Source: Marsupella aquatica
Taxonomy: Eukaryota; Plantae; Marchantiophyta
Assembly: GCA_973895155.1 (NCBI GenBank)
Contig: OZ316898.1
Span: forward strand, 9,473,079-9,537,078
Direction of reading: 5' to 3'
Length of the DNA: 64,000 nucleotides
In this document: positions 2,691 to 61,440 of the stretch, piece after piece
Layout of the letters: every line of letters begins with the position of its first letter
How positions within the stretch are numbered: the stretch's first letter is position 1
Notes under the pieces: model-generated
What the model was told of the DNA's origin: nothing
The model's database searches: none
The model's input: only the letters and a program-made list of their open reading frames with translations
Made by a program: the position numbers and the translations under genes

Positions 2691-2738
2691 CGGACTGACG
2701 GATTTCTGTCTGAGGCAGTGGTGGTCCATTTGCATGCG

Positions 2739-21793: not shown

Positions 21794-22139
21794 TGTTAGA
21801 TATTGCTCTTAGTTTTGTTGATTCATGAGCTAACTACAATTAATCTAATTCGGGTTAGGACTTAGTTAATGTTAACGGTAATGTTATTGTGTATATAGCC
21901 AAGGCTGACGTCAGACCCTAGTGAAACTTAGGCTCATTGTTACGGAGCTAGTTGAGAGATAGGAAGAACTTGTGCTATGGATACTTGGTATGGCCGGTCG
22001 ACCTAGAGTGCAGTAAAGCTCTTGTGTGTTCCCGTGGACATAGCCTCATGTGGAGGTGAACCACGTATCTCTCTGTGTCGACTCTTGTGTGTTGGATGGT
22101 TCATGGGCTTGCTGTTACGAATGTCATCTATGCTCAACA
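21794..22139 (+). repeat. Copia 5' LTR (346 bp)
   Basis: TGTTAGATATTGCTC...TGCTCAACA; colinear with 26894-27534 once the 295-bp insertion is removed. Confidence 0.95.
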
Positions 22140-22141
22140 AG

Positions 22142-22152
22142 TGGTATCAGAG
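22142..22152 (+). promoter_or_regulatory. Primer-binding site (tRNA-iMet)
   Basis: TGGTATCAGAG 2 nt after the 5' LTR. Confidence 0.9.
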
Positions 22153-23989: not shown

Positions 23990-26686
23990 ATGACTAGATT
24001 TGGAGAGTTAAGTTTGAGGTGGAGAAGTACGATGGTCGTACTGATTACTTGCTTTGGGAGAAGCAAGTGAAGGGTGTCCTTCGGGCCATGGGCTTAGCTC
24101 ATCTGCTTTCATCGCGAGAGCAGTATGATGGAGAGGAGGAGATTTCTGTGAAGCAGTGGAGATAGGAGCAGGTGATTGCTATCAACGCAATGATGCTATA
24201 TCTCAAGCCGCACATCATCAAGCAGCTGGATGATTATGCGGATTGCGCGTCACTGTTCAAGGCTCTAAGAGAGAAATATTACCGGGAAGATGCATCAGAC
24301 CGGATGTACAAGAAGTCTCTCTTGATGAGCCTCAGGCTCAAGGAAGGAAGCAAGATGCAGGATCACCTAGATGAGTTTGACAGTCTAGCGGTGGATCTGT
24401 CAAACCTGGGAAAAGGAGTTAAAGATGAGGATAAGGCCTTGCTTCTGCTAAGCTCCTTACCGCCGTCATATCAGGGCTTGAAACATGTGCTCTTGTATAG
24501 AGATCTGAAGTCCATTTCGTATAATGAGGTGGTGAGCTCTTTACTGTCTGATGATGCTCAAAAGAAGCTAGGTCAATCACACACAACATCTTCTTCTAGC
24601 ACTGCGCTGAACGTGAATCATGGGAAAGCAACGCAGCGCACAAATGGGAAGAACAAGTTTAGATCTACATCACGGGGGAGATCTAAATCTAGAGGGAAAT
24701 GGCAAGAGAGGAAGCCTCTTACATGTTGAAATTGTGGCAAGCCTGGCCACATGAAAAGGGATTGTCGAGTAAAGGTCCCTACTGCATCTGCTAACGCGGC
24801 ATCGAGCTTGCATGAGGTAGATTTACTCGATGATGATGACATATTGTGATGTCAAGGTTATGCTCTTGAGCAACGTAGTGTCAAATTCAGGTAGTGATGA
24901 TTGGATTCTAGATAGTGCATGTATTTTTCACATTTACTCTCAGAGCAGAGATTTTTTTAGTTCTTACACGAATTCCAACGGTTCCGTGTTGATGGGAAAT
25001 GAAATCCCATGTCAAGTTGTTGGACTTGGATCTGTTAGATTTCAGATGTTTGATGGTACTGTGAGAACGTTGAGGAATGTGAGACATATTCCCAGCATGA
25101 TGAAAAATCTCATTTCACTTGGAGTTTTAGAAGCAAATGGCCATTAGTGGAGTTCTGCTAATGGTGTCCTTCAGGTTTCAACTAGAACTAAAGTTGTATT
25201 GAAGGGAAAGAGACATAGCAATCTATACGTTTTGGAGGGCAGTGTAGTTTGTAATGAAGCCAATGTAACCTTATCTCATGAGGAAATGGCCCGGCTGTGG
25301 CACTTCCGTTTGGGCCACATAAGTGAAAAAGGTTTGATTATTCTTCAGAAGAAAGGATTACTTTCTAATTTGCAATCTTGTAAGTTGGAATTTTGTGAGC
25401 ACTGTGTGCTAGGAAAGCAGCACAGGAAACCCTTCGGAGTTGGAACTCACACCAGCAAGGAGGTACTTGAGTATGTACATAGTGATGTGTGGGGTCCAGC
25501 CCCTACTCCCTCACATTCTGGACGGTTATACTACGTCACGTTCATAGACGATTACTCAAGGTATGTGTGGATATACTTTCTACACAATAAGTCTGATGTT
25601 TTTGCCACTTTTAAGGAGTGGAAAGCCCAAGTAGAGAATCAGACTGGTAATAAGGTGAGATATCTTCGATCGGATAACAGGGTGAATACAGTTCCGGGGA
25701 ATTTGGAACGTATTGTAAGGAGCAGGGGATTACCCACCATCTCACAACAAATTATACTCCTTAGCAAAATGGTGTTTTTGAGAGACTCAACCGAACATTA
25801 TTGGATCGCTTGAGGAGTATGTTGAGTCAATCATGCTTACCACATGAGTTTTGGGCTGAAGCTATCAACACTCTAGCTTATTTGGTAAATTTTTCTCCAT
25901 CCAGTTCTATTGGGTTCAAGACGCCATTTGAAATGAGGTACGGGCGTCCAGCAGATTACTCACATCTGAGGATTTTTAGATGTGATGCTTATGTGCTTAC
26001 ACCTTCCCAGCTTCGATCCAAGCTGGAGTCTAAGTCGAAGAAGTGCATTTTTCTTGGCTATCAGAAAGGTGTGAAGGGTTATAGGTTATGGGATCCAGTA
26101 ACTTGTAAACTAATTGTTAGTAGAGATGTGTCCTTTAATGAATCCAGATCATCAAAAGAGGGGGAGAGTTCTCAGGACTCCCATACTGACAAGGGGAAAT
26201 CTCTCATCCCGGACCGGGTTGAGGGGGAGATTAGTCATGATGATGTGCATGACAGGAGAGATGGAGAAGCTTCAGGCTTGGAGCTGGTTCCTGTGATGGA
26301 ATAAGAGGAGCAGATTGTTGCTGGAGTACCTCAAAATCAGCCAGCAACAACAACAGATCAGCCTGAGTCATCTACTAGAAGAACTTCCAATCGTTCTACT
26401 AGAGCTCCTACTAGGTATGGTCAATGGGTAGACTCATCTAAGCTAGATGATATTGACATTGCACCTGATGAAGATGATATGGCTTTGATCTTGGAAGAAG
26501 GTGATGGATAGCAGGGTGAAGCACATTGATATCAGGTACCATTTCATTAGGCAAGCAGTGTCTAATAAAACTTTTGAGCTAGTCAAGATTGATGGAAAGC
26601 TCAATCCCGCTCATGCCTTTACCAAAGTGATTTCTTTGGAGAGTTTCTCAAGACATCGTGCTACTTTGCAGGTTTTGCAGTTGTAG
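23990..26686 (+). pseudogene. Copia gag-pol pseudogene (gag, zinc knuckle, protease, integrase, RNase H tail)
   Basis: KFEVEKYDGRTDYLLW; C*NCGKPGHMKRDC knuckle; WILDSAC protease; LWHFRLGH..CEHC and VHSDVWGP integrase; KHIDIRYHFIR RNase H; several stops and frameshifts; no RT. Confidence 0.92.
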
Positions 26687-26882
26687 TACAAGTAGAGTTA
26701 TTTAGCAATGTGTGACTATTTGTATATGGATTACTCATTCCTATTTGGCTACGGCTTAGTTCTAGTTAACCCTTAGTTAACCCTTGTGGTTTTTAGGGGG
26801 AGACCTGGTTTGGTGATTGTCTAGAACTTCCCGCTGAGGATTCCATATGGTAGCATTTAGTCCAGTCCCCAAGACAAGAGTC

Positions 26883-26891
26883 AAGGGGGAG
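26883..26891 (+). promoter_or_regulatory. Copia polypurine tract
   Basis: AAGGGGGAG immediately before the 3' LTR. Confidence 0.85.
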
Positions 26892-26893
26892 TT

Positions 26894-27534
26894 TGTTAGA
26901 TATTGCTCTTAGTCTTGTTGACTCATGAGCTAGCTACAGTTAGTCTAACTCGGGTTAGGACTTAGCTAATGTTAGCGGTAGTGCTATTGTGCACATAGCC
27001 AGGGCTGATGCCTCGGGGGGTTGACTATAAAAAATCTTAGGAACCACATGCGATCCAAAATAGGTATTTTGGATAGAACTTAACTAAATTTTAAAAAAGC
27101 GTAGGAGGCAAAAGAAGGTATTATAAACTTATGTTTATAGAATATTCTCTAATATATATCTTTTATAAAGTAAAATAGGTTATTAATATTGAAAATAGAG
27201 AATATTCTTGGAATATTTTCTTTATAAAATAGGTCTATTTATATTAGGCTAGGATCGCACGTGGTACCCCAAAATATACACTTAGTTAACCCCCCGAGGC
27301 TGATGCTAGACCCTGGTGGAACTTAGGCTCATTGTTACGGAGCTAGTTGAGAGATAAGGAGAGCTTGTGCTGTGGATGCTTGGTATGGCCGGTCGGCCTA
27401 GAGTGCAGTAAAGCTCTTGTGTATTCTCGTGGACGTAGTCTCATGTGGAGGTGAACCACGTATCTCTCTGTGTCGACTCTTGTGCGTTGGATGGTTCATG
27501 GGCTTGCTGTTATGAATGTCGTCTATGCTCAACA
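26894..27534 (+). repeat. Copia 3' LTR with internal MITE
   Basis: Direct repeat of 21794-22139 plus a 295-bp insertion. Confidence 0.95.
27012..27298. mobile_element. MITE (non-autonomous TIR element, ~290 bp) in the copia 3' LTR
   Basis: TIR CTCGGGGGGTTGACTA / TAGTTAACCCCCCGAG (15/16 match); flanking duplication GCTGATGC; sub-terminal inverted repeat ACCACATGCGATCC / GGATCGCACGTGGT; AT-rich core; absent from the 5' LTR. Confidence 0.9.
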
Positions 27535-30500
27535 AATATATCATATTCTTTTTATGTATACCCTTCTTTCTAAAAAATTTTTATATAGGTAATTATTTTA
27601 ATAATCATATATAGTATATCATTTTTTTTATGTACATATTTTTTTCTATGTGTATATGTTATGATAAATAGTAATCATGACAAAACGTATACATGCTTAT
27701 CATTTGACATAGATCATGGTCATGAGTTTTCCATTCACATGATGAACCATGAAGTTGTGTCTAGAGGTATCAACTCTAGCTTATAGTTGACACTTTATAA
27801 GTAAGATTGAGGGGAAGACTTCTCTTTCAGTGCAACCGAAGTCTAATAAAAAGTATTGACTCCAATGCTCATCTCACTTTGTCAATGAGAAGCCTTGCCC
27901 CAAACCTTGACACTCTTCATCCCAAATTGGATTGTGTAAAGTCAAAGTTAGTTTATACCTTAAAGAAAAAGGGTAAGTTGGTTTGGGGAGGAACACCTTA
28001 CTTGAATGAAGATTGCCCAAGTAGTTTTTTAGGCGCTCACCAACTCTAAACTACTGGGTTTTGGCAGGTTTGTTTTGCTTATTTGAAATACTTCCAACAT
28101 GTTCTAGAGAGTCTCAAACTTTGTCAGAGTGTAAATAGTTATAATTGTATTCTGAAAATCATTCTCTTTCTTGTCTACAATTCTTCCAGCCCATCACCTG
28201 CAAAAAAAATATAGGATTGCTTTTATTACGGACCCCCATTAGGGGTCATTTGCAAAATTCCTGGCTCCACAGCGCGCCACACCATCATGGCACGTTGCAA
28301 ACAGGAAGAGACTTGTTTTTGAATAAAATTAACTTCTGCATTCGTGTTTGTGGCAAGTTTGCTGTAAAAACTGGGACGCCATGCCGTAAAAACAAATGCA
28401 AAAAAACTGACATGCAAATCAAAAGACAAAAAGATTGAGGTAAAATTGCTCCCCAAAATGGTTTTATTTATATTTTGATTTTATTCAAAACATAAAATTT
28501 TCCCGGTAGCACTTTTCAATTTGACATTGTTGAGTCAAATCATAATGAAAACTCACGTATAATATGGCGTAAGAAAGATCTTGAAGAGACGGTCCCGATG
28601 AGCTCAACATTGTCATCATTCGGTAAAAATTGAGTAAGTAGTTTGAAAAATAAATTTTACCCTTGATTTCATAATCTCTACGTGAATAGAATTTTTGTTA
28701 TACAACCCCTGAAATGTTGACCCTTTCTATGAGAATGAACCTAAAATTGGCAAATTTTATTGAGTACTAAGGAGATTATGAATTTTAGAATTTCTTTAGC
28801 TTTTTAACATTGATAAATTTAGTTGAGTTATGAGGAGATTATAAATTTCCAATGTTCTTGACCTTTCCAATGAGTGTAACATTGGGAGATTTTATCAAAT
28901 ACTAAATGGTCATGAGTTTCTAAATTTCTCTAGCTTTTGATTAATTTTGAATTTCACAATTGGAGATTTGTTTCCATGAAATTTTTTGTCTTAAATGATT
29001 ATGCAAAGTTAATGATTTGATGACACCGATGACTTCTCTCTCTTCGTCTATCTGTGTGTAGGAATTGAAAGTGATTACTTCGATGCAACTTGAGTGCATC
29101 CAGCATCCCTTCGGTACCGTGGAGGAAACCGTCGAGCACCATTTTGCTGAAATGAGCAATTAAGCTACCCACACATTAAACATTAGTTCACATTGCAACT
29201 GGTTTTGCGATTGATGTTAATTATGGTTGCCTTGGTAACTTTGACAATTGTTTCAAGTGTCAAATATTGACTTGTCCATTTTTGAATTTTTTTTCTTTAG
29301 ATTTGGAGGTCCATCTAGGTTTCACTTTGTAGATAACTGCCTCTAAAATAACATGGGGGTCCACGGATTAATGGAGTTTCAAGGAAGACTCGTAGGTTTA
29401 TGTGAAAGAACATTATAAATTTTGAACAAATGTCATGGGTGATATGCATGGGACCCACTCAGAGTGAGGCCCACAAGGGCTGAAACCTTACTTAACCCTA
29501 GCACATAGCACATATGCCTACTGTAGTCCTGTGCTAATGGGAGTGGCCAGTGCCTTAGTTCAATCATTTCCAAATATCTCTCTACCAATCAAACCAGGAG
29601 CCTTTTGGTATCCACTTCCCTACCAAAATGGCTACCACAACTAAGTGTCGAATTGTCCTCCTGTCTGCAGGGCCCTTTGAGTCTAATCCTCCTGCTCTTG
29701 GATCCACCTTTTCACATGGTCACCAAACCCATCACCCAAAATTGGAAGTGCTCTGAATCTACTTCTTGAGACTAGATCTGGAAAAGTTTTTTTATCTACC
29801 ACACCCATCCGTGCAATTGACTTGTCAAACAGACTTCGGACAATGAAGACATGCTCTCCTGAGTTTCCAACATGATTTGGTAGGCTCATGCACATCCATA
29901 CAGACTTGGATAGCACACTCAGAAAAATTATAAACTTGCAGAGCACATCTGTCTTGGAAATGGACCCTCGTGAATTTGGAAATATATTGACACTTGGGCT
30001 CCTCACACTCGGGCTCATCAAACCTGCGAATGTTTGTGTATATCATATGTCATCAAGTGAAGTAGTAAACTTGCATAAACTATTCGGGTACTTTTCTTTC
30101 GATCTATCAAGTCTCCTCTCCTTTTTCTATTTTGAGAGAGTTCTGTCAGACGTATTGTTCATCGAGTCCAATGCCCGACTATCAACTTCAATTCTAATGT
30201 TATCACAACAGACCATGACATCTTTGTTGTGCATACATTGAGCACTCATATCTCAATTGTTTTTTGCCTTGAAAACCGAAAGCAGGCCCATCCTACAGAG
30301 GATAGACGTCCTGCTTTGGAGCATACATTTGCACTCAAATCTCAATTGAATCGCTTTGAAGGCTCAACCCGCTATCTACAACATCTTATACAAGGGCTAC
30401 TCTAATGTAGCCGAGCTCTGTCGCAGCTGCATTGATGGGACGATGATGGGGACGACGTTTGATGGGCACGCTTTTGTGCATTGGTTGATGATGCGAAGGT

Positions 30501-45107: not shown

Positions 45108-48100
45108 ACAGGAATTACCTAAGGTCGACTTTCTTTCGTTCTCGTTTGGTTCCAGTGGCGGACTTGAGAAAAGGATGCGGCTGGATTCTGCTCGATAAAT
45201 AAAATTGTGCGTTGCTGCATTCTAGCTACGAATACTCTAGTTGGTTTGTCCTTTATAATTATATCTAGCAAATTTGATCTTCGTCTTTCGTCGGGCTGAG
45301 AAGCTAATAACCGAATACTTCAATGCGAGCTTCAGTGTCAGTAAACGGAATTAAGCTCGAATGGAAGGTTCCCTTCTCCTGTGAAGGATCGATCATGCCA
45401 ATATAGTTGTAGTACAGTCATCTGGAAGCTGGTCTACTCCGATTTAGTTGGAAAGGGTAGTCAGTAAGATATATTGGGGATGCCGAGAATTCAGTTACCA
45501 GCTAGCACAGGGCCAAGCTAGCTAGGACAAGGAAAGAGAGGACGCCAAGAAAATACTGACTGGTATCATTTGGTCACTGGTAGCTTCACAAGTATGTCGA
45601 TTTGTAATTTTAAGTTTTTTTTTCAAAGTAATAAAAAAAGGTTTTGATTGAAATGGTTTGCTGGAACACTTGAGAGCACTGAGCTGTGCACATTCTTTCA
45701 TTTGTCTGGCGACGATCCGTCGCTTTAGTGTGGGACTCACAGCTATTTTCGCTACACATGGACCGGACAAATGTGTACCCTAGATTCCAATTCTCGGGTC
45801 CATTTCTAGGTTACTAGCTCGCTGGTGGACATCCGTAGATTGTGGTAGGACATTTCTTTCAACGCATCGATCAGATCTTCAATTATCTGTGAAGTTAGCT
45901 TGCTATTCGACTCCGTTGAATGAGCCCCCCTGGTGTTATTTCACAGTCTTTACTTTTGATGTATATGAATATCACACGCAAAGAACAAAAAGGGAGACAA
46001 GATTGGAGGCCAAGATCCCAAAGCCAGAAGATCCCCAACTCTCGCATGTTGACGCCATCTCCCGTTAGTACTACTGCGATCGATCATGTTGCCACCTCGT
46101 ACGAACATGTCATGAGACCACAGAACCACGTACGATTTGGTTGTAGCTGAATTACGCTAGATTGTACACGAAGACACGACCCACATATCCATGGGGTAGG
46201 GTGGTCCTGAAACGAACAACTGAAACTGAAGGATTTACTCGGTCGTAATCCAAAAACCATAGCCACATATATTCCACATTTGGAGGTCTGTTCACTTCAT
46301 TAAGCTGCATGTGATTTTCAGAGGTGCCTATTTAAACCGCAAATACGGGGGCAAGGGGCTCTGGGTCACCCTGAGTCCTCATACCCAGGTGCATCCACCC
46401 TTAGCTATCAGATGCACCCTTAGCTATAAGATAAGATCTATGGTTCAAATGGTAGTTCTGGTTGAGATTTACTTCTGTGAAAAAAAGCAGGAAAAATGGT
46501 TGCCTGGATATTTTGCGAGAAAAAACAAAAAAACAAAAAGGGCAATCTGATTGGCTAAATTTGAAATTTGAATTTCGGGGGGAATGGTAGATCTGAGCCG
46601 TCTGTATTTCTTGTCTCCAAAAATCTAGTCAATCCATCATAGTGGACAATCTATGGTTCAAAAGAAAGATCTCAAAGAGATTTATGGATGAGTTTTGTGG
46701 GTTTTGTAAATGGGTTAATATTTTTCAAATGAAAAATAAAACAAATTCAAATCCTTTTTCAGATGAAAAATAAAACAAATCCAAGCCCTCCTAGCAGTCC
46801 ATGTAATGCAGGTTTCTTGCCCTATACCTTCCACCCCCTTCAAACCCTTCAACCACTCCAGATTTACTAAACAATATTGAACTTAGTTGAGATTTATGTG
46901 TGCCTGTGCCTCCACTCCGGTCAAAGCTAACACTCAGTCTGGGGCCAGTTGATGACCACAATACCAGAGTCAAGCACAGGCTGGCAGCGGGCATCACACA
47001 CAGTCTATTCAATGCTAATCCACAGTGTCTTATTAGCCCCGAGATTACCTTTTGTTCTTAATATTAATTTTCCCTATTTTTATAATTGTTCATAGTTACC
47101 CATGCCTGTTTACTTTTTCTGTCTTTTTGAGTTACAAAACATCTATAGTAATATTCTCCAATACTCCCGCCAATACTGTAAGATAAATATAATCCAATAT
47201 TGCAGCCAATACAGGTAAGGTAAATATCATCTTAATGTTTTTCTAACAAAAAAGTGATGTAGTAGAGGTGGCCTCCTATATGAGAAGTCATAGTTAAACT
47301 CATTAAGGATCACTAGTTAGTTATAGTAGGTGTGTGAGTACCTAACTAAAAAGATAAGTGCCAAGAAGCTTGGAACTTGACTTTGGTAACATGTTTCACC
47401 CCCCAAGTCTCATAAATTCCTTGTCGTGGTGGTCTCAATCTCTGCGCAGCCTGCCAACACAAATTAAGGCAGGGAGTGTTGTGTGGGGAATGTATAGCTG
47501 AGTGTTGTCTTTTGAAGAGGACGGTGATTATTTGGGAACTAAGGGGGGCTTTACAAGACCGCGGGGGCCGTTCAGTCCCTCCTCTTCCAAAGCAAAGCCG
47601 GGGGCCACTTAATGAACTAAAATTAGTAAACCGGGGCAAACACACTACCAGGCTGCAGCGAACGGCGCCCAGCCTCATGTAAAGTGAACAACGCCCACTT
47701 TGAGAGATGGGACACAGAAAAGACAGAAACAAGGGCCAGCTGTCTGATAACTCCCAAATTGACGGGGAGGAAATATGTGATTGCGCGGGAGAAGATCGTC
47801 AAGCTCAGTCTTTCTTTCAATTAATGGTGGATCTTCAAGCGTTGGAGAGAAGAGAGCTTGATGAGCAACAGGTCCTTCTGTTTATGGACCCATACAGAGA
47901 GATCTACTGTGGCCAAAAACTAGAAAAATCAAACTTCAGCTGTGAAATTTTGTTCAACTGGGAAGACGCTGATACAGACGCACATAGCAACATTGAATCA
48001 TGGAACCTAGAGAAATTTCGTCAAGTGAGAGCCATGATTTGTACAAAGAAATTGAGGCAGAAGAAACGTCCGACGAAGAAGACCAATGCACTGTTGAATA

Positions 48101-49939
48101 TGCTCGTGAACAGGTCAGAAGCTTTTCTTGTTCCTGTCCCTGCCAAGTTTGATTGTGGAATTTCGTTTTTGCATTTTCAGATTGCAAAATTGTCCTCTTA
48201 TCAATTATTTGATTACACGATGCAGCCTGACAGGAGGAAACAAAAATTCTGGTAATAATTTGCCTCAATTTGGTGTTGCAAGTCATCGTGGCTAAAGTCA
48301 TACAATCACAGCAAGCTGCTTTGGTTACAGCAACAAACACAATGCATCTATTTAATTGCCTCATTGGGGACCGACGGCTTTTGCGATTGCATCCTAGATC
48401 CATTTGGAGGTTGGACCGTGAATCTCCATTTGTGGATAGAACATTGTTGGCTTCTCATACTGAAAAAGAGTTCACAAGAAGGTTACGTATCAAGCCTTCC
48501 ACATTTTTTTACCTCTGTTCTCTAGTTGCCCCAGACATGCAGAAGTCAAAAAAAGGTGGAGCTATTCCATTGGAAAAGAGGGTTGCTTTATCATTGAACA
48601 GACTAGGTACAGGTAACTACTTGCTTGGTTGTGCTGACCTGTTTGGAATGAGCGAAAGCTTGGCCTGTATTGTTGTGAGACAATTCTGTCAAGCCGTTTT
48701 GAAATACATTCGTCCACTTGTGGTTCCGAAATGGACTTCAAAATCTCTGAAAAATTTAGCAGCCCAGTTTGAAGCTAAGCATGGGTTGCCTTTTATTATG
48801 GGAGCCATAGATGGCTCTCATATTCCCATCATTGCCCCTGAGGGGGATCCGGCACCTTTCTATAACAGAAAGGGATTTTATTCTGTTCTCTTGCAAGGCA
48901 TTGTGGACACGGAAACAACATTTTGGGATTGGGACTTTGGATGGGCGGGTTCTCTACATGACTACACCTTATCTGTAAACTCAGTGATGGGAAGGAAAAC
49001 TATTAGGGGAGATTTCCGTCCATATAAACTCATAGGTGATGCTGCATATCCCATCCGAACTTGTATGTATATTCCTTTTAAAGGAACAAAAGAACAACTT
49101 GAGCCTTTCAAAACACATTGGAATTTCATCCAGAGTTCTACCAGAATGTGTGTAGAACGGGCATTTGGAATTTTGAAAGGCAGGTGGCGGATTCTCTTGA
49201 GACGCATAGAAATGAAGATTGATCATGTTGCTGACGTGGTCGGAGCATGTATATGTCTGCATAACTTATGTATTATGCACAAGGATTTCGGAGATGAGCA
49301 GCTCGTAGCAGATGCAAAATTGTGGCTGAAGGAGCAATGTGTCACACCATTCTGAGTAGTGTAGTAGTATATCGTGCTATTAGAGTATGTACGTTTGGTA
49401 TGAGTGCTATTGGAGCCGATAAGGTTCTGTCAGGTTTGTGTGAGAGGGTACTTCTCACTTGTGAGACATTGAAAGGTCATCTTTCAATGTTGAGCCTTGG
49501 AGAGAGAGGAGCTTGAGTGTGGCTATGGTGGCTGTGAGCTCCGCTTGTGTAACGAGGATTCCTTGAGTAGTGCAAGGTGCATTGGCTTGACATACGTGTG
49601 TGATCGGATCGGTGCGGGATCGATGGGGTATTGTTGACCGAGATCGTTGTGCCGATTGTATGGAGATTACATTGAAAGATCACATTCGAAATCTGTTGTA
49701 CGGACTGTGCGGACAGAAGTTCGATTGATTGAGTTGTCGATGGTTCGTGGTAGCTCGGATCGTGTGTTGTTATCGAACAGATCGTTGGTATCTTGACCTG
49801 TATCGTTGTTGTCCGATCGGCTTGCTTCCCGATCGATGTACAGATCTGTGATTGGTGACAGGTTTTGAGTTGGAGGTCGATTGATGATTCGTGGAGGAAA
49901 GCGAATGTTGAGTAGATGTTGGACAGTGGAAGTCGATCC

Positions 49940-50480
49940 GTGAGGCTTCAGATCCGATTGCCGGCTACTGTGAGGCTTCAGATCTGATTGTCGGCTACTA
50001 TGGGGCTTCAGATCTGATTGCCGGCTATTGTTGGACGATGTTGGCAAGGCGCAGGTGAAGCGACGGCTCTTTTCCTGAAGGAACGGAGCTGCCAATGCCC
50101 CGTGCGATGGTATCATCATTTCAGTGAAAGAAACGAGGGTCAAAGGTGTTGAATCAAGCTGCTGCCAGTTCTGTGGAAGGGCTGCATTTTTCATGAAGGA
50201 AATCGACAGTTTTCGGGAGCTTTTCATGAAGGAAGTAGTCATTTTTGGGGTCAGGTGTGAGGCGCACGAGGTCACCCATCCCGAAAGTGCTCGCGCGAGG
50301 TGACACGTGAGGTCACCCATCCCGAAAGTGCTCCCAACCGTGAGCGCGAAGTCACCCATCGCGAGCGCAGGCAGGCGCGAGGTCGAGGTCACCCATCCCG
50401 GGGCTATTCCGGGCCGTGAGCGCGAGGGGAGGCACAAGGTCGAGCGCGAGGAGGTCACCCATCCCGGGGCTATTCCCAGC
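49940..50480. repeat. Short tandem motifs in the gypsy 5' non-coding region
   Basis: 30-bp unit GTGAGGCTTCAGATC(C/T)GATTG(C/T)CGGCTACT x3 at 49940-50030; GTCACCCATC(C)G-type motif x5 at ~50270-50470. Confidence 0.85.
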
Positions 50481-53400
50481 CGTGAGCGTTTAACTGGCAA
50501 GTTCTCATCCCACCTTGTGTACACACAAGCTTTGACAACTTGTTGTTTAGATTCAAGCGCCAGGGGGCTTTATACACTTCCCGGTTTGTTTAGAGGCCTA
50601 TTCTAGGCCAAATCAGAGGCTGTTTGAGGGTTTTTGATACTTCTGAGTCCATCTAGACTCACAGATTGAACCAATTTTGCCTTGGTTCTCATCTACAACA
50701 TTGGAGTGCCATTGTGAAGCCTATTATGAAGGCTCTTCCTTGAACCTTATGCACATTGTCATATTGATTTGCATTTGCTTTTGTGTGGAGAGTTGAGTGG
50801 TATCCATTCTTGTTTCTGGATCCTCTTCACACATGTTTCCTGTTTATGCGCCATGTTAGTTTCGTGTGGGCGCTTGATTCCATAGGAGTGATCCGGGTTT
50901 GCAACTGGACATTCTAGTGTGCTGTGTATTTCTCTTTTGGTGATGTTGGAGTGATGCCCAACACACCATGGTGAGTGCTTGTGGTGCTGACAGGGATAGA
51001 TTGCCCTTAGGGTTAGCACATAGATTAGGTTAGGGTTGGTCACCACGGATTCTTCTGGTGCTGCTGGATTACCCGATGGACGACGGACCGGTTTCACTCG
51101 GAGTGGGGCACAGTTTCGGCCAGCGGCATTGGTAGCAGTCAGCAGTGCAGCTTCAGACAGTGATTCTGATGAGGACTCAGTGACCAGTTCTCCTCATCAT
51201 CAGGTGGTTGCACCTTTGTTGTGGGATATGGACGAGATGTACGGGGCTACAAAGGGCCCACGACGATACTCTGGTGCAGTTGGCACAATTGATCTGGATG
51301 ACTTCATCCAGGAGTTTGATACGTGGTGCGATATGCAGACATTGCGTAATGTCACGTTGTTTACCCCTTTCATGGCATGGAAAGGATTATTCCAGCATTT
51401 GGAGGGGCCACCAATGAATGACTACCATGAGTTTCGGAAGGCTCATTTGGTTGAGATTGAGGCATGGAGGCAGCATTGGTCGCCTAATTACGTGTCCATC
51501 ACCTATGGCACTAGTGCGGCTGCCCAACCAATTGCCATAGCTGTTGCTTTTTCTAGCAGCACTAGCCAGAGTGGCACACCATCCACCAGCAGCACTCCAG
51601 CAGCATCCACCACTACTCCTGCCGGTGTGATTGTGACAGGAACTGGAGTTGCGCCAGCATTTAATCTTGTGGTGGAATTCTTTGAGGTACTGAAGCAGAA
51701 CTATCAGGGTGTGAGAACTGATAAGTTGAAGGGTCTTCAGGAGTTCCAACGCAAGACTGGAGAGAGCCTACGTGAGGCATACACACGTATGCGTAGATTG
51801 ATCACTGTCACCAAGGGAGTGACAGAGGCTCAGGCAGTCCAATTTTGGTATGCAATTCTGGACAGAGAATTGCGACGCAGAGTGAGAGATGTCACTCTGC
51901 TTAGGGATGCAGATCCCACATTAGCAGTTGTTTTCACCCTTTCTGAGCGCATTGAGCTCAATATGGTGAATGAGAAGGTGGTGACTTTCGGATTTGCCAA
52001 GGAAGCACCAAAGGCTGCATCTACATCCACACCACAGCCTACTGCACGGAAGAGCCAGAGGGAGAAGCCTACTGCACGAGAGTCTACCAGCCAGAGACCT
52101 GTGCCTTCTTATGCTGGACAGCAGTCAGGATGTTGGACCTGTGGTGGGGATCATGCACAGAGATATTGTCCAGATCATAGAGGATCAGAGGGAGCATCAG
52201 CGCCTGATCAGCGACAGTGTGATCACTGTGGAGCTCCTGGACACACCAAGGATAGGTGTTTCTCACTCCACCCTGAGTTACGGAGAGGAGGATCCCATAC
52301 ACATGATCAGGGAAGAGGAGGAGGAGGTAGAGGTGGTGGACGTGGTGGTGGCATGCCACATGCAAGGAGACAGGGAGGTGACGCTGCCCCTGCTGTAACC
52401 ATAGATCCAAAGGATGCTAAGATTGCTCAATTGGAGCAACAACTAGCTGCCATGGCTAGTTCCCAGGTGAGACCTAATTCTGGTGATGGGGCATCTACAT
52501 CCTATGGACCTTCCACATCCCATGGTCCTTCCACATCTTATGGAGCTGATGGAGACCTTGCCACCATGGGATTCATGTGTGGCACTGCACATATTGATGC
52601 ATCAGCAGCTTTGACACGTGGGGCAGCCAAAGCTCTTGAGCCCCGAGGAGCAGTAGTGGAGTTAGATCCACAAAGGGGGGATGCACGTCGGCAGACAAAG
52701 CTTCCTCAGTCTTTTACATTGTCAGAGACAGTTCAGACTGCCTCTATGAACCCGGTTCGGACAAACCCTGATGTGGGTAAGTTGGCAGAATCAGGTAGTG
52801 ATGCAGCAAGGATGATAGGTACCTTGTTGGGGGCGGCTACTGCCATAGTACGCACCCCATTATTTTCAGCGACAGACATGCTGAACTTGGGAGTTGGTCC
52901 TGCAGAAGTGTTCAGATTGGCAGCTACACTCTGTGAGGACACTCCAGTGGTTGCTTCCCATGCAGAAGCAACTTGTAGTGTTGATGCAGTGAAGACCATG
53001 CCACCTACTGCTACTAGTGAGACATGGCATGCAGCAGCAGCGAGGTTGGTGGATTTACCAGCACGCCCTGCATTTGAGAGGACTAGGTTTAAACCTAGTG
53101 TTGTGTCATTGGATAATCGGAGTGGTATCTTCCGATTAGTTGGGCCTTCTGGAGCAGTATACCAGCCAGAGAGAGTGTTACTGGATACTGGTGCTCAGCC
53201 CTTGATGTTGGGGAAGTCTGCCATACGTGGATTGGGATTGCGTCCAGAGGATTTGGAGGATTGTCCCTTTCCCATTCAGACTTCATTGGGGGGACCTACA
53301 CCTACACAGCATATCACCAGGAGACCACTTGATTTGAGGATTCAGGAAGGTCATACCACAGATAGCTCACAGATACAGGCGCGAGCTATTCTGACTAAGG

Positions 53401-53891
53401 CAGAGTCATATGATGTGTTGGTGGGATGTACAGTGCTCTACCCCATGGGATTTATTCTTGATTTTTGGGAGGAATCAGTGTCATATAGACCTGATTGGCA
53501 GTCAGGAGATGCTCGATTGAGCAAATTGCCAGTGAGATTTAGTGGACCTGTGGGAGGCTCTAAATCCACACCATTGTCTTTGGCAGCATTTAGTGGTGTA
53601 ATTGCTGGACCTGATGATTTGATTGAGGGTAATGCGCATGCAGCCGATGTTCCACCATTGGAGGAGTCTCATGAGGAGCACATCATGCGAGGGTTACCTG
53701 TTGGCAGTGTTGTGCCACCAGTGTGGGGCACTGCACAAGCCTTGCCACAGGCAGCAGCACGATTGGTACATGATGCATAGCGTCATGCTTTTACACCACA
53801 GTCAGGAGTAGAGCAATCTCTTGCAGATGGACCTGTGACTCTTTCACCATTGGATACCACTCCTATTGCTTGGCAATATCCACCGGAGGGT

Positions 53892-54830
53892 ATTTGTTTG
53901 TTGGATCTTTTTGGTGGGATTAGCACTGGATTGGCTGCTGTTCTTCAGGCAGGAATTCCTGTGCGTCGTTATTTATATGTGGAGATAGACGAGACAGCAC
54001 AGAGGGTCTCATTGCGACATGTGGCTATGTTGGTGGATAGATATCCACAGTTGCTATCAGTGGATGCTGTTCGTGGTTATCAGCATGCACTACCTACTGA
54101 TATTTCATTGCTGGGGGCGGATCATCTGCATCGTGTTGGCCCCATTGATTTGGTGATTGCTGGTTGGCCATGTCAGGGCCAATCTAGAGCTGGCGTTGGG
54201 CATGGACTTCATGATCCACGCTCTGCATTGTTTTGGGAGATGTTACGGGTGCTGCGTCACCTCCAGCTACATCAGACACAGTCTCCAACATACATTTTGG
54301 AGAATGTGCCATTGTTAGGTGATGATCGTAGTCGGATTGTTGCCAGTGTTCACCAGGTGAGGTCTTGGATTGGACCTGCTGTGTTATTGGATGCTGCACG
54401 TGTGGGTTCTCGTGCACATCATCCACGCTTATGGTGGACTAATTTGATCCCATGTGAGGTGCTGAAGCGCGCATTTGACAGCATTCCACGCTCACCAGCC
54501 TTAGTGGTGGATGATATTTTGGATCCAGGGCGTCGTGCACAGGGTGTGACCCAACTTGATAGACCTCCATTGGCAATGGTCAATGCAGTTGGGTGCCCAC
54601 GTTGTGCATTACCCACTCTTGTAAGCCACTCTGCTTCATATGCATTCAGAGCAGGTGGCCCTGGACTTGTATGGGACACAGCTCTCCAGCAGTTAGTGGA
54701 GCCTACTGCTGATGAGAGAGAGCGTGCTATGGGATTTTTGACTGGCACCACTGCAGTTGCCTCTGTGTCAGAGGGTTTGCGGCGCTAGGTTCTTGGTCAA
54801 GCAATGGATTTGAATTGTTTGACTTGGATT
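53892..54830 (+). other. DNMT3-like C5 cytosine DNA methyltransferase domain within the gypsy polyprotein
   Basis: Motif I LDLFGGIS, II YVEID, IV IDLVIAGWPCQ (Cys at 54171), V RSALFWE, VI ILENV, VIII AH(H)PRLWWTNL, IX ERERAMGF, X RR*VLGQAMD, in canonical order. Confidence 0.93.
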
Positions 54831-57800
54831 ATCAGCTTGGGAGTAGCTGAACAGTTGCGGATGCGCTCTGCCGGAATTACTGATTGTCCCTTGGTGAGCT
54901 TGCGGTCCACTGAGACAATATTGACCACAGCTGGGGGCGAGCAAACAGTCCATGGACCTATGACAGGATTGGCAGCTGGACAGATTGTTGAGCAGGAAGA
55001 GACTGCTCAATCTACTGCTAAATAGCAATCATCGGCTATCTCTTCTACCCTACAAAGAGATATTAGAGATTTGGTGGAGAGTTGGGAACCACAGCTTGGC
55101 CCTAAGTTAACAGGGGAGGAGAGACGTCGCATGCATCGATTCCTGAAGAGTTATTGGAATTGTTTTGCATTCAGCATGAAGGATTTGGGGACATTGAAGG
55201 GCCCTGGTATTCAGATTGAATTGGCTAGTGATGCGCCAATCTTTCGTAGACCATACCGTTATAGTGACATGGAGAGAGCTCTAATTCAAAGCAGAACTCA
55301 AGATTTGTTGGAGGCTGGATTGGTGGAGATTTCATATGGGGAGTATGCATCTGCCACAGTGATGCCAGCCAAGAAGGATGTGCATGGCAATTACACAGAT
55401 AGGCGCATGTGTGGTGATTACAAACCTATTAATTGCCAGACAAAATCTGATCGATATGCCATGCCCACACCTGAGGAGATCTTTGATGCTGTGGGGCATG
55501 CAAAGGTTTTCAGTTCATTGGATCTGAGGGCAGGATACCATCAGCTTCCAATTAGGCATGCTGACAGGTCCAAGACAGTATTCTGGGGGATTGATTCTTA
55601 TGGCAAAGATCGTTTGTATCAATGGTTATTCTTACCATTTGGGTTGAAGAATACACCAGCTGAGTTCCAGAGAGTCATGGATCGAATCCTTGCAGGTTTG
55701 GATTTTGTCAGATGTTATATTGATGATATTTTGGTCTATTCTTCTACTGTGGAAGAACATCAGCAGCACTTGCAGACTGTGTTGGAGAGATTGAGAGCAC
55801 ATGGGTTGAAGCTCCATCCTAGCAAGTGTAAGTTCTTCCAAGACCAGATTGAGTATTTGGGCCACACCATATACCCAGGGGGATTGGGTGTACAGCATAC
55901 TAAAGTGGAGGCCATTACACAGATTCCTTGTCCTACTGATGTGAGTAGAGTTCGTGCATTCTTGGGATTGGCGAGCTACTACAGGAGGTATGTTAAAGGA
56001 TTTAGCCAGCTTGCTAAACCTTTGACCATACTCACTAAGTTGGATCAGGAATGGATTTGGGGTGATGACCAGGAGCATGCCTTTCAGGAGTTGAAGCAAA
56101 GGTTGGCATCATCCCCTATTTTGAGAAGACCCATTTCAGGCAGACCATTTCAACTACACACTGATTGGAGTGGAGTAGGACTTGGAGCAGTGCTGACTCA
56201 GAAGGATGATGAGGGGAATGAGTTTGTTGTGGCTTATGGCAGTAGATCAAACAATTCAGCAGAGGCTAAGTATAGCTCTTATGAGGGAGAGTGTTTGGCA
56301 GCAGTGTGGGCTGTTGCACACTTTAGTTGCTACTTGTTTGGTAACCCCTTCACCTTGATCACTGATCATCAGCTTCTTAAGTGGTTAATGGAGTCTGACA
56401 AGCTTACAGGGAAGCTTGCACGATGGGCATTGTTGTTACAGGAGTATGATTTCCAGGTGGTGCATAGGCCTGGAAAAGTGAACTTGGATGCAGATGGATT
56501 AAGCCGCAATCCATGTACCAGTCAGCAGGATGAGACTGGAGCCAGATGGCATGATGAGTCAGATAGGGAGATGGTGCCAGGATGGCATGCATCTGCCTTT
56601 CTTTGTTGGGTGCCAGCATACAGTGGATCTGTGGACTCTACCTCATTGGATGGAGTGGATGATGAGTCTTCAGATGTGGATGTTGGTGAAGTAACTTCTG
56701 GACAGCAAGGTATTCACAATGATGTGAGAGTGTTGGAATATCTGCGCAATAGTTCTATTGTTGGCAGTGTTGATGCCAAGGAACGTGACAGGGTTCTACA
56801 GAGAGCCAAGAGGTTTCGATGGGAGGGAAACCATCTTTTGAGAGTACTGCATGATGGTAGGATGTTGGTGGTACCAAAACCATCGCGACATGCGCACGAG
56901 GAGTTGGGTCACTTTGGTGTGAAGCGCACTTACAGCTTGCTGCAGACGCAGTATTGGTGGCGTGGTATGCACACTCATGTCCAGCAGTTGATAGCTAAGT
57001 GTGTGGTATGTGACAGAGTGAGAGCATCATTTAATGCTCCCACTCCCCAGTTGCACCCATTACCGATCATGGGTTTGGGATATCGTTGGAGTTTGGATTT
57101 TGCTGGTCCATTACCTCTTACCCAACATCATAATCGGTATGTTTTGGTCATGGTGGAGCACTTCTCCAAGTGGATTGAGCTAGTGGCGTTGCCAGATAAA
57201 GCCAGTGGAGGAGTTGCTGCTACATTTTTGGATCGTGTACTCAATCATTTTGGAGCACCAGCTGAGGTGTTGACTGATCAGGGAACTGAGTTCCGTGGAG
57301 AGTTTGAGAGTTTGTGTGAACAAGCTCTGATTGATCATCGCACTACCTCTCGTGATCATCCTAAGGCAGATGGATTAGCTGAGAGAGTTGTGCAAACTGT
57401 GAAGAGAGGATTGTGTAAGTATGACTTGCAGGTTGGTCATCTGGGAGATTGGGATCTCCAGCTACCTTGGTTAGCTATGGGCTACCGTTTCAGTCGGCAA
57501 GCATCACTTGCATCCTTCTCACCCTACTTTTTGCTCTATGGTAGAGAGCCAGATTTGCCAGCAGCTATTCGTCGTCATGCTGCACCAGTTGTGAACTTGG
57601 ATGATCCTAATGTTTGGGTCAAGGTGTGTTCAGAGAGAGCACGGGTATTTCAGAGAGTGATGCCCATGGCTTTTGACAACCTTGCCATTGCCCAACATCG
57701 TGATACTTTGAGGTATGCCACTATTCGTGGAGGAGGTTACCGTGCAAGCATTCGACGATTTCATCCTGGTGATTATGTTTATTTGCAGCAGACAGCACCC

Positions 57801-57992
57801 ACGATACTTGATGTGACCGCAGGCCGGACAATCTTACGTGTGCGTGAAGTGTTGCCTTCTGGTGTCCTGATGTTGGAGGGACGCGATGGTATGGTTTGGA
57901 AGGATCATGTGCGCAACTGTGCACCATGTCACCTTCCCAACATTGATGGTACAGTAGATCCAAGCTTGGCACATGTTCGTGCTGGCTTGAAA

Positions 57993-58127
57993 TGTATGTT
58001 GTGTGGATCTGCTCAGGGAGCAGCTACTATGTTGATTTGTGATAAGTGTTCTAGAGGATGGCACATGTCATGTTTGACACCACCATTGCAGGTGATTCCT
58101 AGTGGATCATGGTTGTGTCCTCAGTGT
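57993..58127 (+). other. PHD finger (C4HC3) at the integrase C-terminus
   Basis: CMLCGSAQGAATMLICDKCSRGWHMSCLTPPLQVIPSGSWLCPQC. Confidence 0.95.
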
Positions 58128-59605
58128 CGGTGAAGCCGACTAGTTATCATTTGTGTTCTCTTGGCAGATATGGATTGCAGGTAGGTGATCGATGGGGCTC
58201 ACTTGCACCCGACCTCCTGATCTTCACACCTAAAAAGGTGTATATCAACCTTGTAGAACTCATGGCTAGCTAGAGTTAGGGGACCTTACTCCCAGCTAGG
58301 GGGGCGATTGTGGGTTTTGGACATGTGTGGACATGAGTTCCACTTGTATTTCATTCTCTTGTATTTGTGATGTGGCAGTGTGACTATGTCTGGATGTATG
58401 TGACAAGCGATGTATGTTGTGTAGCGATATGTATGCGCACGACAAATGCCTTGCAAGTTTTGGGGATTTAAGACAAGCTGGGACTATGAAAATGTATGAT
58501 TATGCACAGGTTGAGGTGAATCGAGCTACAATTGATATGGAAGAGTTCATACGTACAGCTGGATTACCAGACGACAATGACAATGCTGTGATTGAACTTG
58601 CCAATGAAAACTCTGTTCAAGCTTTGAATAGAGGGGTCACAATGCATGTGGAGCTGGCCAAGACATTGTTTCACCGACACTTGCGTGAACAGGTTGAATT
58701 ACCCGAAGGTGTCTTTGATGATGACACAGACTCTCCGAGCGATGCTGAAGAATGATTCTAGTAATTTTTAAAATTCTGTTAGGTCAATTCCCTACGTCCA
58801 TTGAAGCCATTGTTGTTAGGTCTAGCATTCTGTGAACTGGAAATTTTCGTCCACATAAATGCTGACTTTTTCTATTACTCAATCTGTGCAATCGTCTTCT
58901 TTCAGAAATTGTGCAAGGAACTCAAATCTCAGTCGAAATGCACAGCATGAATCACTGAAAGCTGAAATTGAAAAGGTCCTGAAAGTCTCCCATTCTCAAA
59001 GTCAAAATTGAGAAGACAAAATGCAGTCCTGATGAGCTCCAATTCTTAAAGTTGAAATTGACAAAAGCAATCTATTCTCAAAGTCGAAGTTGGAATTGAA
59101 ATCAATTTCTGGGCTATGGATTGATTTTGCCTATGCTTTGCTATTGCAATTTAAGTAGACAATTTTGCTTGAATGAATTTTGCTGATAGTTATACATGTG
59201 GAAAGCAAAACGCAGTTCTGAAAATCACCAGTTCAGCAAGTCGAAATTGACAGGGAAAAATCCATTCAAACATGAAATTGAAGTTCATATACAGTTCAGA
59301 ACAGACATGAGTAAATTCTCACCCGTTCTGTACACATTGTGCAATTCTAGAACAAAAAAGAATGATTAAACTACCAAAAAGTGAGAGCTTCCAGGAGTCG
59401 ACCTTTTTTATATTGAATGCCCAATTTCAAGGAACTCACTTGTCCGTAGAATGAAACCTATTAAGCAATTCGGGAGGATAGTACAACTCAGTGGGCCGTT
59501 TATAGTATTTAAAATATTCTAGGGGGACACCATCATAGCTCACTTCTATAACAGAAGGTTGAGGGACAAAGCATCGCCTAGGCGCCCACTCATCTGCAAC
59601 CACAT

Positions 59606-60995
59606 TTACAGTTTGTCAATGCGCCTTGAAATTTCGGATTTGAGCTCTTTCAGAACACCAGTGGTCTCACGAATGTCTTGTGCCATGCTAGAGGTGTTGC
59701 TCACCATCTCACTCATGTACATACTATACGTATCTGAATTGCTTTTTTTGGATGATTTTGTGGACTGATGGGTAGTGTTAGCAGGATTACTACCTTGATC
59801 TGAACCAGATCCAACCCCACCTTCGGCAGACCCTTGCGCTTCCCTTGGCTCATTCAAGTCAAGGGGACATGGATTGGGAGTCCCACTAGCATCTCCGTGA
59901 CACAATTTTTGTACATTGGCCCGGTTGTTGAAGCCTTGATCAATTTCGTCAAAAAATTTATAGGTGATCTTTCGTCCCTCTCCAGATATGCTGAGGATAC
60001 GTTTGTCAGTGCAATACCGTCTATAAATGGTTTTCCATTTCTTCCTGATTGCCTCAGCTGACTTGTTGAATCCTTCACAAGCAGCAATCATTTTCTCTTG
60101 TAGTTTCTCCCACATGTGCACACCTGTGTAATCGAGAGAAATCAAGTTATAAAAAATAACAAGTGTGAATACTTGAGAATACTTGAGAATGCACGCTCAC
60201 GGACAAGTTATAAAAAAATACAAGTGAGAATAATTGAGAATGCACGTTCACGGACCTATACATGTGATTTTGACAAGAAAATAGAAATTTGAGGATCTGA
60301 ACCTCACCTTGTTTCTTGGCATTCGTTGAGAACTCCTCATCCATTTCTGAGCGAAATGATATTAGGTGGCTGACTTCTGCATCTGTCCATCTACTCACTG
60401 AGTTTCCATCTTCCCCATCGCCTTCTTCATCACTCAACTCGACAACCTTCTGAGCCTTCTTCGGTTTCTTTGTTGGGGTGGCCTTGGCAGCCCTCTTTTT
60501 CTTTGTGCCCTCACCAGGTATTTTGCCTCCAGTTTCTGTCCTAACAAGCAGCTTCGTGACTTGAGGAGGCTCCTCACTACTGGTAGATGCAAATGGACCT
60601 GGTGCAGGGCAAGAAAAGAACTGATTACGATGGTCTGGAACAAAAGCTTGTCCTGCAGTTCCATGAAATGAACGAAAGCTACTTGGTGGGGGTTCATTGA
60701 GGCAGCGTTGGAATTCCTCATCGGACATGACCAACGGAGGTTGGGACGAAAGTGCATTGAATGAATCTCCCCCCTGATAGCTAGAAATTGGTTGTGAATC
60801 TTGAACAAAATTGGAGTCGACTTCCATTCGTTGCCTCTGTAGCCTTTCCTGCCATTGCTGAAAAAATGATTGGTTCATCGTGACTGATCCCGTGACTGAT
60901 TGTATAAACTCTATGTAAGGAGAGTGAGATGTGCAATGTGCGCTACTGCTGCACTCTGATGTTGCCGAAGAACATATAGATCTTGTTCTGGACAT
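59606..60995 (-). CDS. Harbinger Myb/SANT (trihelix-like) DNA-binding protein
   Basis: RWTDAEVSHLISFRSEMDEEF...KQ|GVHMWEKL...KSAEAIRKKWKTIYRRY; phase-1 intron 60307-60124; start codon (60995 or ~60878) and 3' end uncertain. Confidence 0.88.
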
Positions 60996-61440
60996 TGGAT
61001 CGATGTTTTTTGAAATGTTGAATCAAACATTTGAAGTTGGCTCGCAAATTGGGCGCCCTCCTGAATCGCCTGGATAGTCGCTTCTGTGGGGTCAGAGTTA
61101 ATGCAAAGTCTGAATATAGCAATGGACCAAACGGATGAAAGAAAAAACCACCCGAGGAGGTGGTCTAAAACTTTGCCCGAATGGCCGTGACACGTCTGCA
61201 AAAACTGGGCCCTACACGGGCCCCACTAATGTCCATGTAGATCGGGATCCTCTGACGGGAAACGTCCCCCCGCGGTCTTGTAAAGTCAAGTGTGGCCAGT
61301 TCTCACGAATGCACGGCTAGGATCACATCTGGGAGACTGGAAAAAAATTGGAACGGCCCCCGCGGTCTTGTAAAGCCCCCCTAAGGAAGGAAGAAACCAA
61401 AGAGTGGACAGGCCAATATGTGGAAAACAGAGGACAAAAA

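Follow-up and report, generated by a model that had tools for sequence, protein, structure and literature searches.

A DNMT3-bearing gypsy element in a liverwort

The DNA analyzed here, hereafter the window, is a stretch of 64,000 nucleotides from the liverwort Marsupella aquatica (GCA_973895155.1, contig OZ316898.1, forward-strand positions 9,473,079 to 9,537,078), and all coordinates below count from its first letter. It contains a Ty3/gypsy retrotransposon that carries a DNMT3-type DNA methyltransferase between its protease and its reverse transcriptase (RT). Contig joints and the sequence itself place the element at 49340-58444, with a 4-bp target duplication, AATG, on both sides. An earlier reading made by a model from the letters alone (the sequence-only reading) had bounded it at 51228-58133, which is the extent of the coding frame. 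A right end at 58405 with a 5-7 bp duplication was ruled out by the contig joints, which set the right end at 58444. The contigs derive from four sequencing runs of two studies (164, 94, 9 and 27 contigs mapped per run) and lose rare variants. Read depth over the element relative to its flanks was about 100-fold or more in runs X1 and X2 and some tens-fold in X3, a depth ratio that does not equal copy number. The coding features are as follows.

51228-55025, + strand: first open reading frame (ORF1), encoding Gag, two knuckles, protease and the DNMT3-type methyltransferase; it terminates at a conserved stop, and the closest relative terminates at the same residue
52131-52259, + strand: two zinc knuckles (CX2CX3HX4C at 52131-52169, CX2CX4HX4C at 52218-52259)
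53145-53507, + strand: aspartic protease (LDTGA at 53181, DTG at 53184; weak Pfam match, E=0.007)
53778-53780, + strand: premature TAG, damage; relative P0083 is open at that point
53871-54854, + strand: DNMT3-type C5 methyltransferase (motif I at 53910, II at 53982, PC of IV at 54168-54173, ENV of VI at 54300-54308)
54420-54428 (motif VIII, damaged), about 54714-54734 (IX) and about 54792-54815 (X), + strand: later methyltransferase motifs
54786-54788, + strand: premature TAG ahead of motif X, damage; another letter in about 98-100% of the mapped depth in all four runs
55023-55031, + strand: conserved stop in a readthrough-type context, TAG CAA TCA (locus comparison and read variation; motif as in PMC3542737)
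55026-58133, + strand: ORF2, in the same frame as ORF1 (RT at 55395-55871 with YIDD at 55716, RNase H at 56058-56447, integrase, PHD at 57993-58127)

The frame at 51228-58133 (+) thus runs from Gag with its two knuckles through protease, C5 methyltransferase, RT, RNase H and integrase to a PHD. Translation and Pfam agree with the sequence-only reading on this order of domains, but not on its single stop, because three in-frame TAG codons interrupt the frame (53778, 54786 and 55023). The four domains for which that reading had proposed a profile scan, DNA_methylase (E=5.5e-11), RVT_1, rve and PHD, all pass their Pfam cut-offs, as does RT_RNaseH; the matches to Gag and protease fall below theirs. 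The integrase has an HHCC motif from 56889 and a core from 57081 (rve and H2C2 matches), with a D..E spacing of 34 instead of 35. Compared with the related locus L020, the window copy shows an in-frame gap of six codons just before 56886. The PHD behind the integrase is most similar to those of CHD4, ATXR5, DPF3, KMT2 and KDM5. The element is assigned to Ty3/gypsy by its order Gag-protease-RT-RNase H-integrase, its gypsy-type RT and RNase H, its DDE integrase, its TG..CA ends and its short target duplication. The domain scan found no chromodomain behind the integrase, the PHD standing in its place, and neither a tyrosine recombinase nor the lack of a DDE integrase that would mark a DIRS/PAT/Ngaro element.

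The methyltransferase is of the DNMT3 type

Both the sequence and a modelled fold identify the methyltransferase as DNMT3-like and not DRM-like. Motifs I, II, IV, VI, VIII, IX and X follow one another in the unpermuted order, unlike in DRM, as the sequence-only reading had recognized. At the family level the domain has PC, ENV and RxR. The best match by sequence in the PDB is DNMT3A (3e-11), and a profile of 72 sequences, selected from shorter matches plus nine locus stretches, matched DNMT3A (1e-27) better than DRM (1e-15) and HhaI (2e-9). The predicted fold, with the break read as X, has a predicted local distance difference test score (pLDDT) of 97, and its top structure matches are DNMT3A/B (template modelling (TM) score 0.72, E=1e-19).

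The window copy is dead. Its domain is broken at motif VIII and before motif X: the TAG at 54786 and the His at 54420 are both present, as previously noted, and His occupies that column in none of the 70 aligned relatives. The relatives have kept the active site. Among rows at 34-87% identity, the catalytic Cys is found in 70 of 71, the Glu in 71 of 71 and each of the two Arg residues of motif VIII in 69 of 70. The ratio of nonsynonymous to synonymous substitution (dN/dS) is 0.13-0.16 in the six between-family pairs for which it could be computed (dS 1.8-2.9), four further pairs being saturated. Neutral evolution, which the sequence-only reading had set as grounds for rejection, is thus not what the families show; the alignments indicate purifying selection on the domain between families, and the enzyme of intact copies is probably active. 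In 25 of 71 relatives the P-C of motif IV is replaced by E-C with the Cys retained, possibly a changed specificity; the window's family has P-C.

A conserved stop separates the methyltransferase from the reverse transcriptase

The third TAG, at 55023, differs from the other two. In the closest relative no stop interrupts the frame at 53778 or 54786, and the frame terminates precisely at 55023. No alternative letter reaches 1% at positions 55023-55031 in any of the four runs, and the neighboring positions 55015 and 55032-55035 vary. We examined 32 related loci, of which 23 contain both the methyltransferase and RT. An in-frame TAR-CAA-YYN lies 63-129 bases upstream of the RT match in 21 of these 23. 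The two exceptions are L021, with two consecutive stops, and L006, with about 1 kb of other DNA at that place. The exact form UAG-CAR-YYA occurs in three of the 23 loci, which represent three families (the window, L005 and L020); 18 have CAA-CCC. For instance, L020 is just 50% identical to the window copy and has the same nine bases followed by 1047 open codons. For a candidate RNA stem downstream of the stop, z ranged from -0.9 to -3.0 in five sequences, and three of 18 pairs have a double change.

The readthrough motif UAG-CAR-YYA serves the env-like ORF of SIRE1. It is the tobamovirus readthrough signal (PMC3542737; here and below, statements on published systems refer to the portions of the cited sources available to us), and the window copy shares the upstream adenosines too; the setting differs, as here the motif stands within a retrotransposon, after protease-DNMT and before RT. 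By these comparisons, the stop at 55023 is very likely read through. Because the stop is conserved downstream of the DNMT, the methyltransferase belongs to the Gag-protease frame, with RT, RNase H, integrase and PHD beyond the stop. Gag-protease-DNMT would then be produced in the larger quantity and RT-integrase in the smaller, so that the enzyme would reach Gag-like amounts. The description of the methyltransferase as an integral pol domain therefore holds in part: relatives and congruence with RT make it a domain of the family and not a captured fragment, but the conserved stop before RT takes it out of pol.

The lineage extends from algae to liverworts and peat moss

Searches returned 215 clusters (50% identity) scoring E <= 1e-30. 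The named close matches come from Marchantia polymorpha (many), Calypogeia and Sphagnum, with up to 72% identity across the domain; a search of viral contigs gave one weak locus. The DNMT is intron-free and fixed in position across relatives. We built a FastTree phylogeny of 167 domains, omitting near-identical cluster members and matches of <230 residues; it includes no host DNMT3 or DRM and has no true root. All 61 protease-side DNMTs fall into one clade (support 0.996), which also takes in 12 unassigned rows but excludes all 69 domains of a second arrangement, in which the DNMT lies between RNase H and integrase. The clade includes proteins of Klebsormidium nitens (P0216), Closterium and Mesostigma as well as Marchantia, Calypogeia and Sphagnum sequences, so that the protease-side domain groups with the Klebsormidium transposon DNMT. 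Among 81 elements with both domains, the 13 protease-side ones show the same family order in the DNMT and RT trees, and disagreement is found only inside the moss-type cluster.

P0216 appears to be one of the K. nitens copies described as KnitGypsy-Dnmt3 (de Mendoza et al. 2018, PMC5890265), given its organism and domain order. We are nearly certain, from these sequence comparisons, that the window element belongs to the KnitGypsy-Dnmt3 lineage, and the same comparisons indicate that this lineage reaches land plants and is older and wider than published. The sequence-only reading had proposed a land-plant retroelement family; the land-plant host is confirmed by a flanking gene that is 83% identical to its Calypogeia fissa counterpart, whereas a separate acquisition by land plants is contradicted by the common lineage with the Klebsormidium element. 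Were the domain instead a host DNMT3 fragment captured once and decaying neutrally, the stop and the damaged motif VIII inside the window copy would be as expected, but the number of clusters, the fixed position, the lack of introns, the congruence with RT and the low dN/dS refute this. We regard the capture as having practically no chance.

The second arrangement was found in L032-L045 and in proteins such as P0043 and P0054. A single open frame there carries the DNMT after RNase H and before integrase; the order RT-RNase H-DNMT-integrase-PHD is seen in 58 proteins, and the arrangement also occurs in the chlorophyte Hariotina reticulata. Judging from domain order, the DNMT moved position between the two related gypsy groups. 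In the DNMT tree the Marchantia and Sphagnum sequences pair with each other (0.953) and leave those of Calypogeia and the window outside, which may reflect old paralogy or horizontal transfer among bryophytes.

Terminal segments, a putative self-priming site and an internal palindrome

A repeat search and blastn found no long terminal repeat (LTR) pair and no repeat common to both ends of the element. The window copy has one terminal segment at each end, which we call A and B.

49336-49339: left target-site duplication AATG (identical four bases at 58445-58448; contigs of runs X1 and X3 carry the empty-site joint linking 49335 with 58445)
49340-49668, + strand: terminal segment A, begins TGTCAC (joint from 49668 to 58307 in all four runs; corresponds to repeat A of L003 and L025)
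49479-49490, + strand: 12 nt complementary to the site directly after A (12 Watson-Crick pairs, matched by none of 300 control positions)
49669-49680, + strand: primer-binding site of the self-priming type, directly after A (offset 0; complementarity)
58298-58307, + strand: polypurine tract (same G-run ahead of B in L003, L011, L013, L014, L020 and L025)
58307-58444, + strand: terminal segment B, ends CACGACA (3' part 71-76% identical to B of seven loci)
58445-58448: right target-site duplication AATG (contig joints and repeat of the left four bases)

Complementarity directly after A is not restricted to the window copy. Six of eight other related loci have 9-16 pairs, in each case unequalled by 300 control positions; the paired site in L018 lies 26 bases from a TATA-like box, and L002 has its best match at a second site. 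In two of the nine loci (L001 and L009) the complementarity after A is no better than chance. The window's A segment cannot be aligned with that of the moss-type family, so the pairing is kept across unrelated sequence. On inspection we saw no tRNA-type primer site directly after A, although no tRNA set was searched. When 49478-49690 was folded, the primer pairing was partial in the centroid and absent from the minimum-energy fold. The stretch at 49479-49490 could accordingly be read as the 5' end of the transcript, acting as self-primer, and segment A would contain the promoter, R and U5, with U3 beginning at segment B.

The arrangement of A and B is clearest in L025, a complete copy of the form A-coding-B-GC-A-B flanked by AAGG duplications. 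B-GC-A is also seen in L003 and L020 (three of six readable 3' ends have it after B), and L011 and L013 finish at B as the window copy does. L017 is flanked by CACA, so that 4-bp duplications occur in all three copies with both ends (window, L017 and L025). In the window's own family, contigs join the end of A to the start of B (four of four runs) and the end of B to the start of A (X2). The A/B junctions differ: L025 has one extra base, L016 and L017 have 16, and the window-family contigs show several joints. L016 and L017 are a rearranged copy, whose junction retains nine bases of the primer site plus seven more.

Given the self-priming site after A and the start of B at the polypurine tract, the LTR is B-GC-A, and the inserted ends lie in its middle. 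They sit at a palindrome, GACA-GC-TGTC. The same palindrome occurs downstream of a G-run at L039:4754 and L041:7580, in two distant, algal-type elements of the RNase H-DNMT-integrase kind; this is two of 14 such loci against 0.1 expected by chance, and many of these contigs may stop short.

Proposed life cycle and alternatives

Our preferred explanation, which we hold with somewhat better than even confidence, is that the window element is a dead copy of the KnitGypsy-Dnmt3 lineage, whose working copies use readthrough, package their DNMT to act on their own complementary DNA (cDNA), and integrate in permuted form. Such copies would make Gag-protease-DNMT3 in bulk and obtain RT-integrase through stop readthrough alone. 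The transcript would start inside A, and its first 12-16 bases would anneal directly behind A and serve as the minus-strand primer, following the Tf1 type of self-priming (PMC7175516). With the plus strand primed at the polypurine tract, the product would be a linear cDNA bearing two B-GC-A LTRs; the cDNA ends (the end of A and the start of B) would become joined. Integrase might then make a 2-base staggered cut in GACA-GC-TGTC inside the LTR, leaving two CA-3' ends for integration. CA-3' ends with 2-base 5' overhangs are the geometry of processed retroviral ends. A two-LTR molecule would give A-coding-B-A-B, and a one-LTR circle, or later recombination of B with B, would give A-coding-B as in the window, a form predicted to be unable to make terminally redundant RNA. 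Integration through the internal palindrome is a moderately probable step.

The abundant packaged enzyme would methylate new cDNA inside the particle, so that it passes as host DNA or so that the state of the new copy is set. We favor methylation in the particle because the enzyme is on the Gag side, its active site is kept and related domains methylate CG in yeast, as SymbioDIRS-Dnmt3 does (PMC5890265). Whether the element's own cDNA is the main substrate we judge to be evenly balanced.

Several observations weigh against this life cycle. The readthrough context is less uniform than the count of loci implies: 18 of the 21 stops are CAA-CCC, one base off CARYYA, with an ATG two codons later, and these 18 loci belong to one moss-type family, several of them representing a single insertion. 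Nor do all members have the stop: in the algal-type P0142 and P0151 one open frame covers both DNMT and RT, which is also the reported state of the Klebsormidium element. The between-family dS values are near saturation, and among decayed moss-type copies dN/dS is 0.35-1.0, similar to RT. Yeast assays detected no methylation by the Klebsormidium DNMT, a result that the authors of that work called inconclusive (PMC5890265). The ratio of observed to expected CpG is 0.34 in the element, 0.45-0.48 in two other mobile elements of the window and 0.27-0.79 in seven relatives; this depletion is no clear signature of self-methylation, and base composition cannot separate it from methylation by the host. 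Finally, the mirror form A-B-A-coding-B is seen in none of nine distinct 5' ends, which the proposed model leaves unexplained.

That missing form would be accounted for if the split repeats functioned as in DIRS/PAT/Ngaro elements, with the B-GC-A junction as the template that restores both ends and the A/B junction merely inherited. The layout A-coding-B-A-B is the same (PMC5890265, PMC7192593). Such a mechanism is nevertheless unlikely, if the most serious of the competing accounts: the element has a DDE integrase, TG..CA ends and consistent 4-bp duplications in place of a tyrosine recombinase, the boundaries of A at the primer site and of B at the polypurine tract are exact in two families with unalignable A, and the A/B junctions vary as fresh end joining would make them. 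As for how RT-integrase is made, splicing or restart at an internal ATG could replace readthrough. Ogre elements splice between protease and RT, and the moss-type family with CAA-CCC has its ATG two codons past the stop. In 21 of 23 loci, however, just one stop separates the two ORFs, which are in the same frame, and the window, L005 and L020 have the exact CAR-YYA with no ATG close by (the first Met of ORF2 in the window is codon 36), so we consider this route improbable.

The enzyme may act elsewhere than on cDNA in the particle. Its main activity might follow entry into the nucleus and target the insertion site or other copies, limiting the family or shaping its chromatin; the conserved catalytic residues are compatible with this, and the PHD at the end of the integrase, like those of chromatin proteins, suggests chromatin contact. 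A position on the Gag-protease side of the stop fits many packaged copies of the enzyme better, and the freed DNMT would have no targeting domain of its own, so that action after entry seems rather unlikely. Less probable still is that the domain persists because of some non-catalytic or RNA-directed function, for example to bind or shield the genome inside the particle. The inactivity of the Klebsormidium enzyme in yeast (PMC5890265) and the E-C variant of motif IV speak for such a role, but Cys, Glu and both Arg are retained in 69-71 of 70-71 rows and the window's family has P-C.

Taken more broadly, the preferred life cycle would describe an old green-plant gypsy lineage, from chlorophytes and Mesostigma to liverworts and peat moss, that has left the standard LTR cycle in favor of self-priming, integrase sites hidden in a palindrome and permuted, end-joined integration, and whose land-plant branch loads DNMT3 by readthrough so that new copies arrive methylated. 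We put this forward tentatively, at a little under even chance. If true, bryophytes could have an uncounted source of de novo methylation. The role of retrotransposon DNMTs has been in question since 2018, with algal hosts that are hard to handle, and the many relatives in Marchantia polymorpha bring the question within reach of a genetic model; given the stop after the DNMT, a high ratio of enzyme to RT is expected, a clue to the site of action. Permuted repeats would further mean that this retroelement, although it has a DDE integrase, inserts with ends other than those of its cDNA, and LTR finders that rely on paired LTRs would overlook the lineage in bryophyte and algal genomes.

Comparison with known elements

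The element is of a known kind in a new host range. KnitGypsy-Dnmt3 has the same gypsy domains, an intronless unpermuted DNMT3 under purifying selection and, in one legend line, DIRS-like repeats (PMC5890265), an arrangement that L025 shows fully and L003 and L020 partly. It was reported as an acquisition of the K. nitens lineage with the DNMT in the Pol ORF (PMC5890265), whereas the relatives found here span liverworts, Sphagnum, Closterium and Mesostigma. In KnitGypsy-Dnmt3 the DNMT and RT share one uninterrupted ORF, in contrast to the conserved in-frame stop of the window element, and the priming sites and internal palindrome are defined here. The main text of PMC5890265 contains none of the words readthrough, PHD and Marchantia.

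Tf1/sushi elements and plant Tcn1 chromoviruses resemble the element in self-priming without a tRNA primer, gypsy order and a chromatin reader behind the integrase, but have ordinary LTRs and a chromodomain where the window element has a PHD, a DNMT and permuted repeats (PMC7175516, PMC6317226; compared by features, not by an RT tree). DIRS/PAT/Ngaro and SymbioDIRS-Dnmt3 share the split direct repeats A-coding-B-A-B and methyltransferase cargo (PMC7192593, PMC5890265); they use a tyrosine recombinase, unlike the window element with its DDE integrase, protease, polypurine tract and 4-bp duplications. The integrase of foamy virus cleaves a palindromic LTR-LTR (att-att) junction to give processed ends (PMC1180852), but that palindrome arises by joining of cDNA ends and the one in the liverwort element is encoded inside the LTR. 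Gypsy-7a_cRei of Chlamydomonas (bioRxiv 2022.06.16.496473), compared by its description only, is a green-lineage gypsy element with a PHD and LTR 'subparts' and no DNMT listed.

A 2026 preprint mentions 'streptophytes (Gypsy-DNMT3)' in passing. Neither the land-plant case nor such a terminal mechanism appears in the available text of PMC12344493, PMC6317226, PMC9985172, PMC6453930, PMC11982613, PMC8557442, PMC7192593 or the Chlamydomonas v6 preprint, and our literature search found no paper on either; subscription papers, theses, Repbase and the supplements of PMC5890265 and of preprints were outside its scope, and the supplements could bear on novelty. Two features were not found in print: the conserved readthrough-type stop after the DNMT, and the self-primed permuted LTRs with an internal palindrome.

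Untranslated regions and neighborhood of the element

The features that remain lie in the untranslated regions and in the target.

50268-50491, + strand: short imperfect repeats in the long 5' untranslated region (repeat search, family D13)
48231-49339, + strand, resuming in frame at 58445-58755: interrupted PIF/Harbinger transposase, 5' part first (DDE_Tnp_4, E=7e-27; frame arithmetic)

In the 3' untranslated region, a motif GATGGGG..CA..GCACCC (58191-58218) is found again in L003, L020 and other loci, even though protein identity is 50%, and is perhaps a packaging or RNA signal. The element inserted into the transposase ORF and interrupts its reading frame. The target transposon occupies 47704-49339 and 58445-61022, with the DDE transposase on the + strand and a Myb/SANT partner on the - strand.

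An intronless CD2BP2/LIN1-like OCRE gene at 5693-6946 (-) places the host among the leafy liverworts: its identity is 83% with Calypogeia fissa and 57% with Marchantia, and does not exceed 50% with any other named plant. The gene lies apparently antisense inside a many-exon gene at about 2634-16576, which we take to resemble RST1/focadhesin. A copia-like element at 21793-27535 has LTR-like repeats that are about 90% identical, and the ORF near this insertion, at 20054-21646, presumably encodes a SpoU-like RNA methyltransferase.

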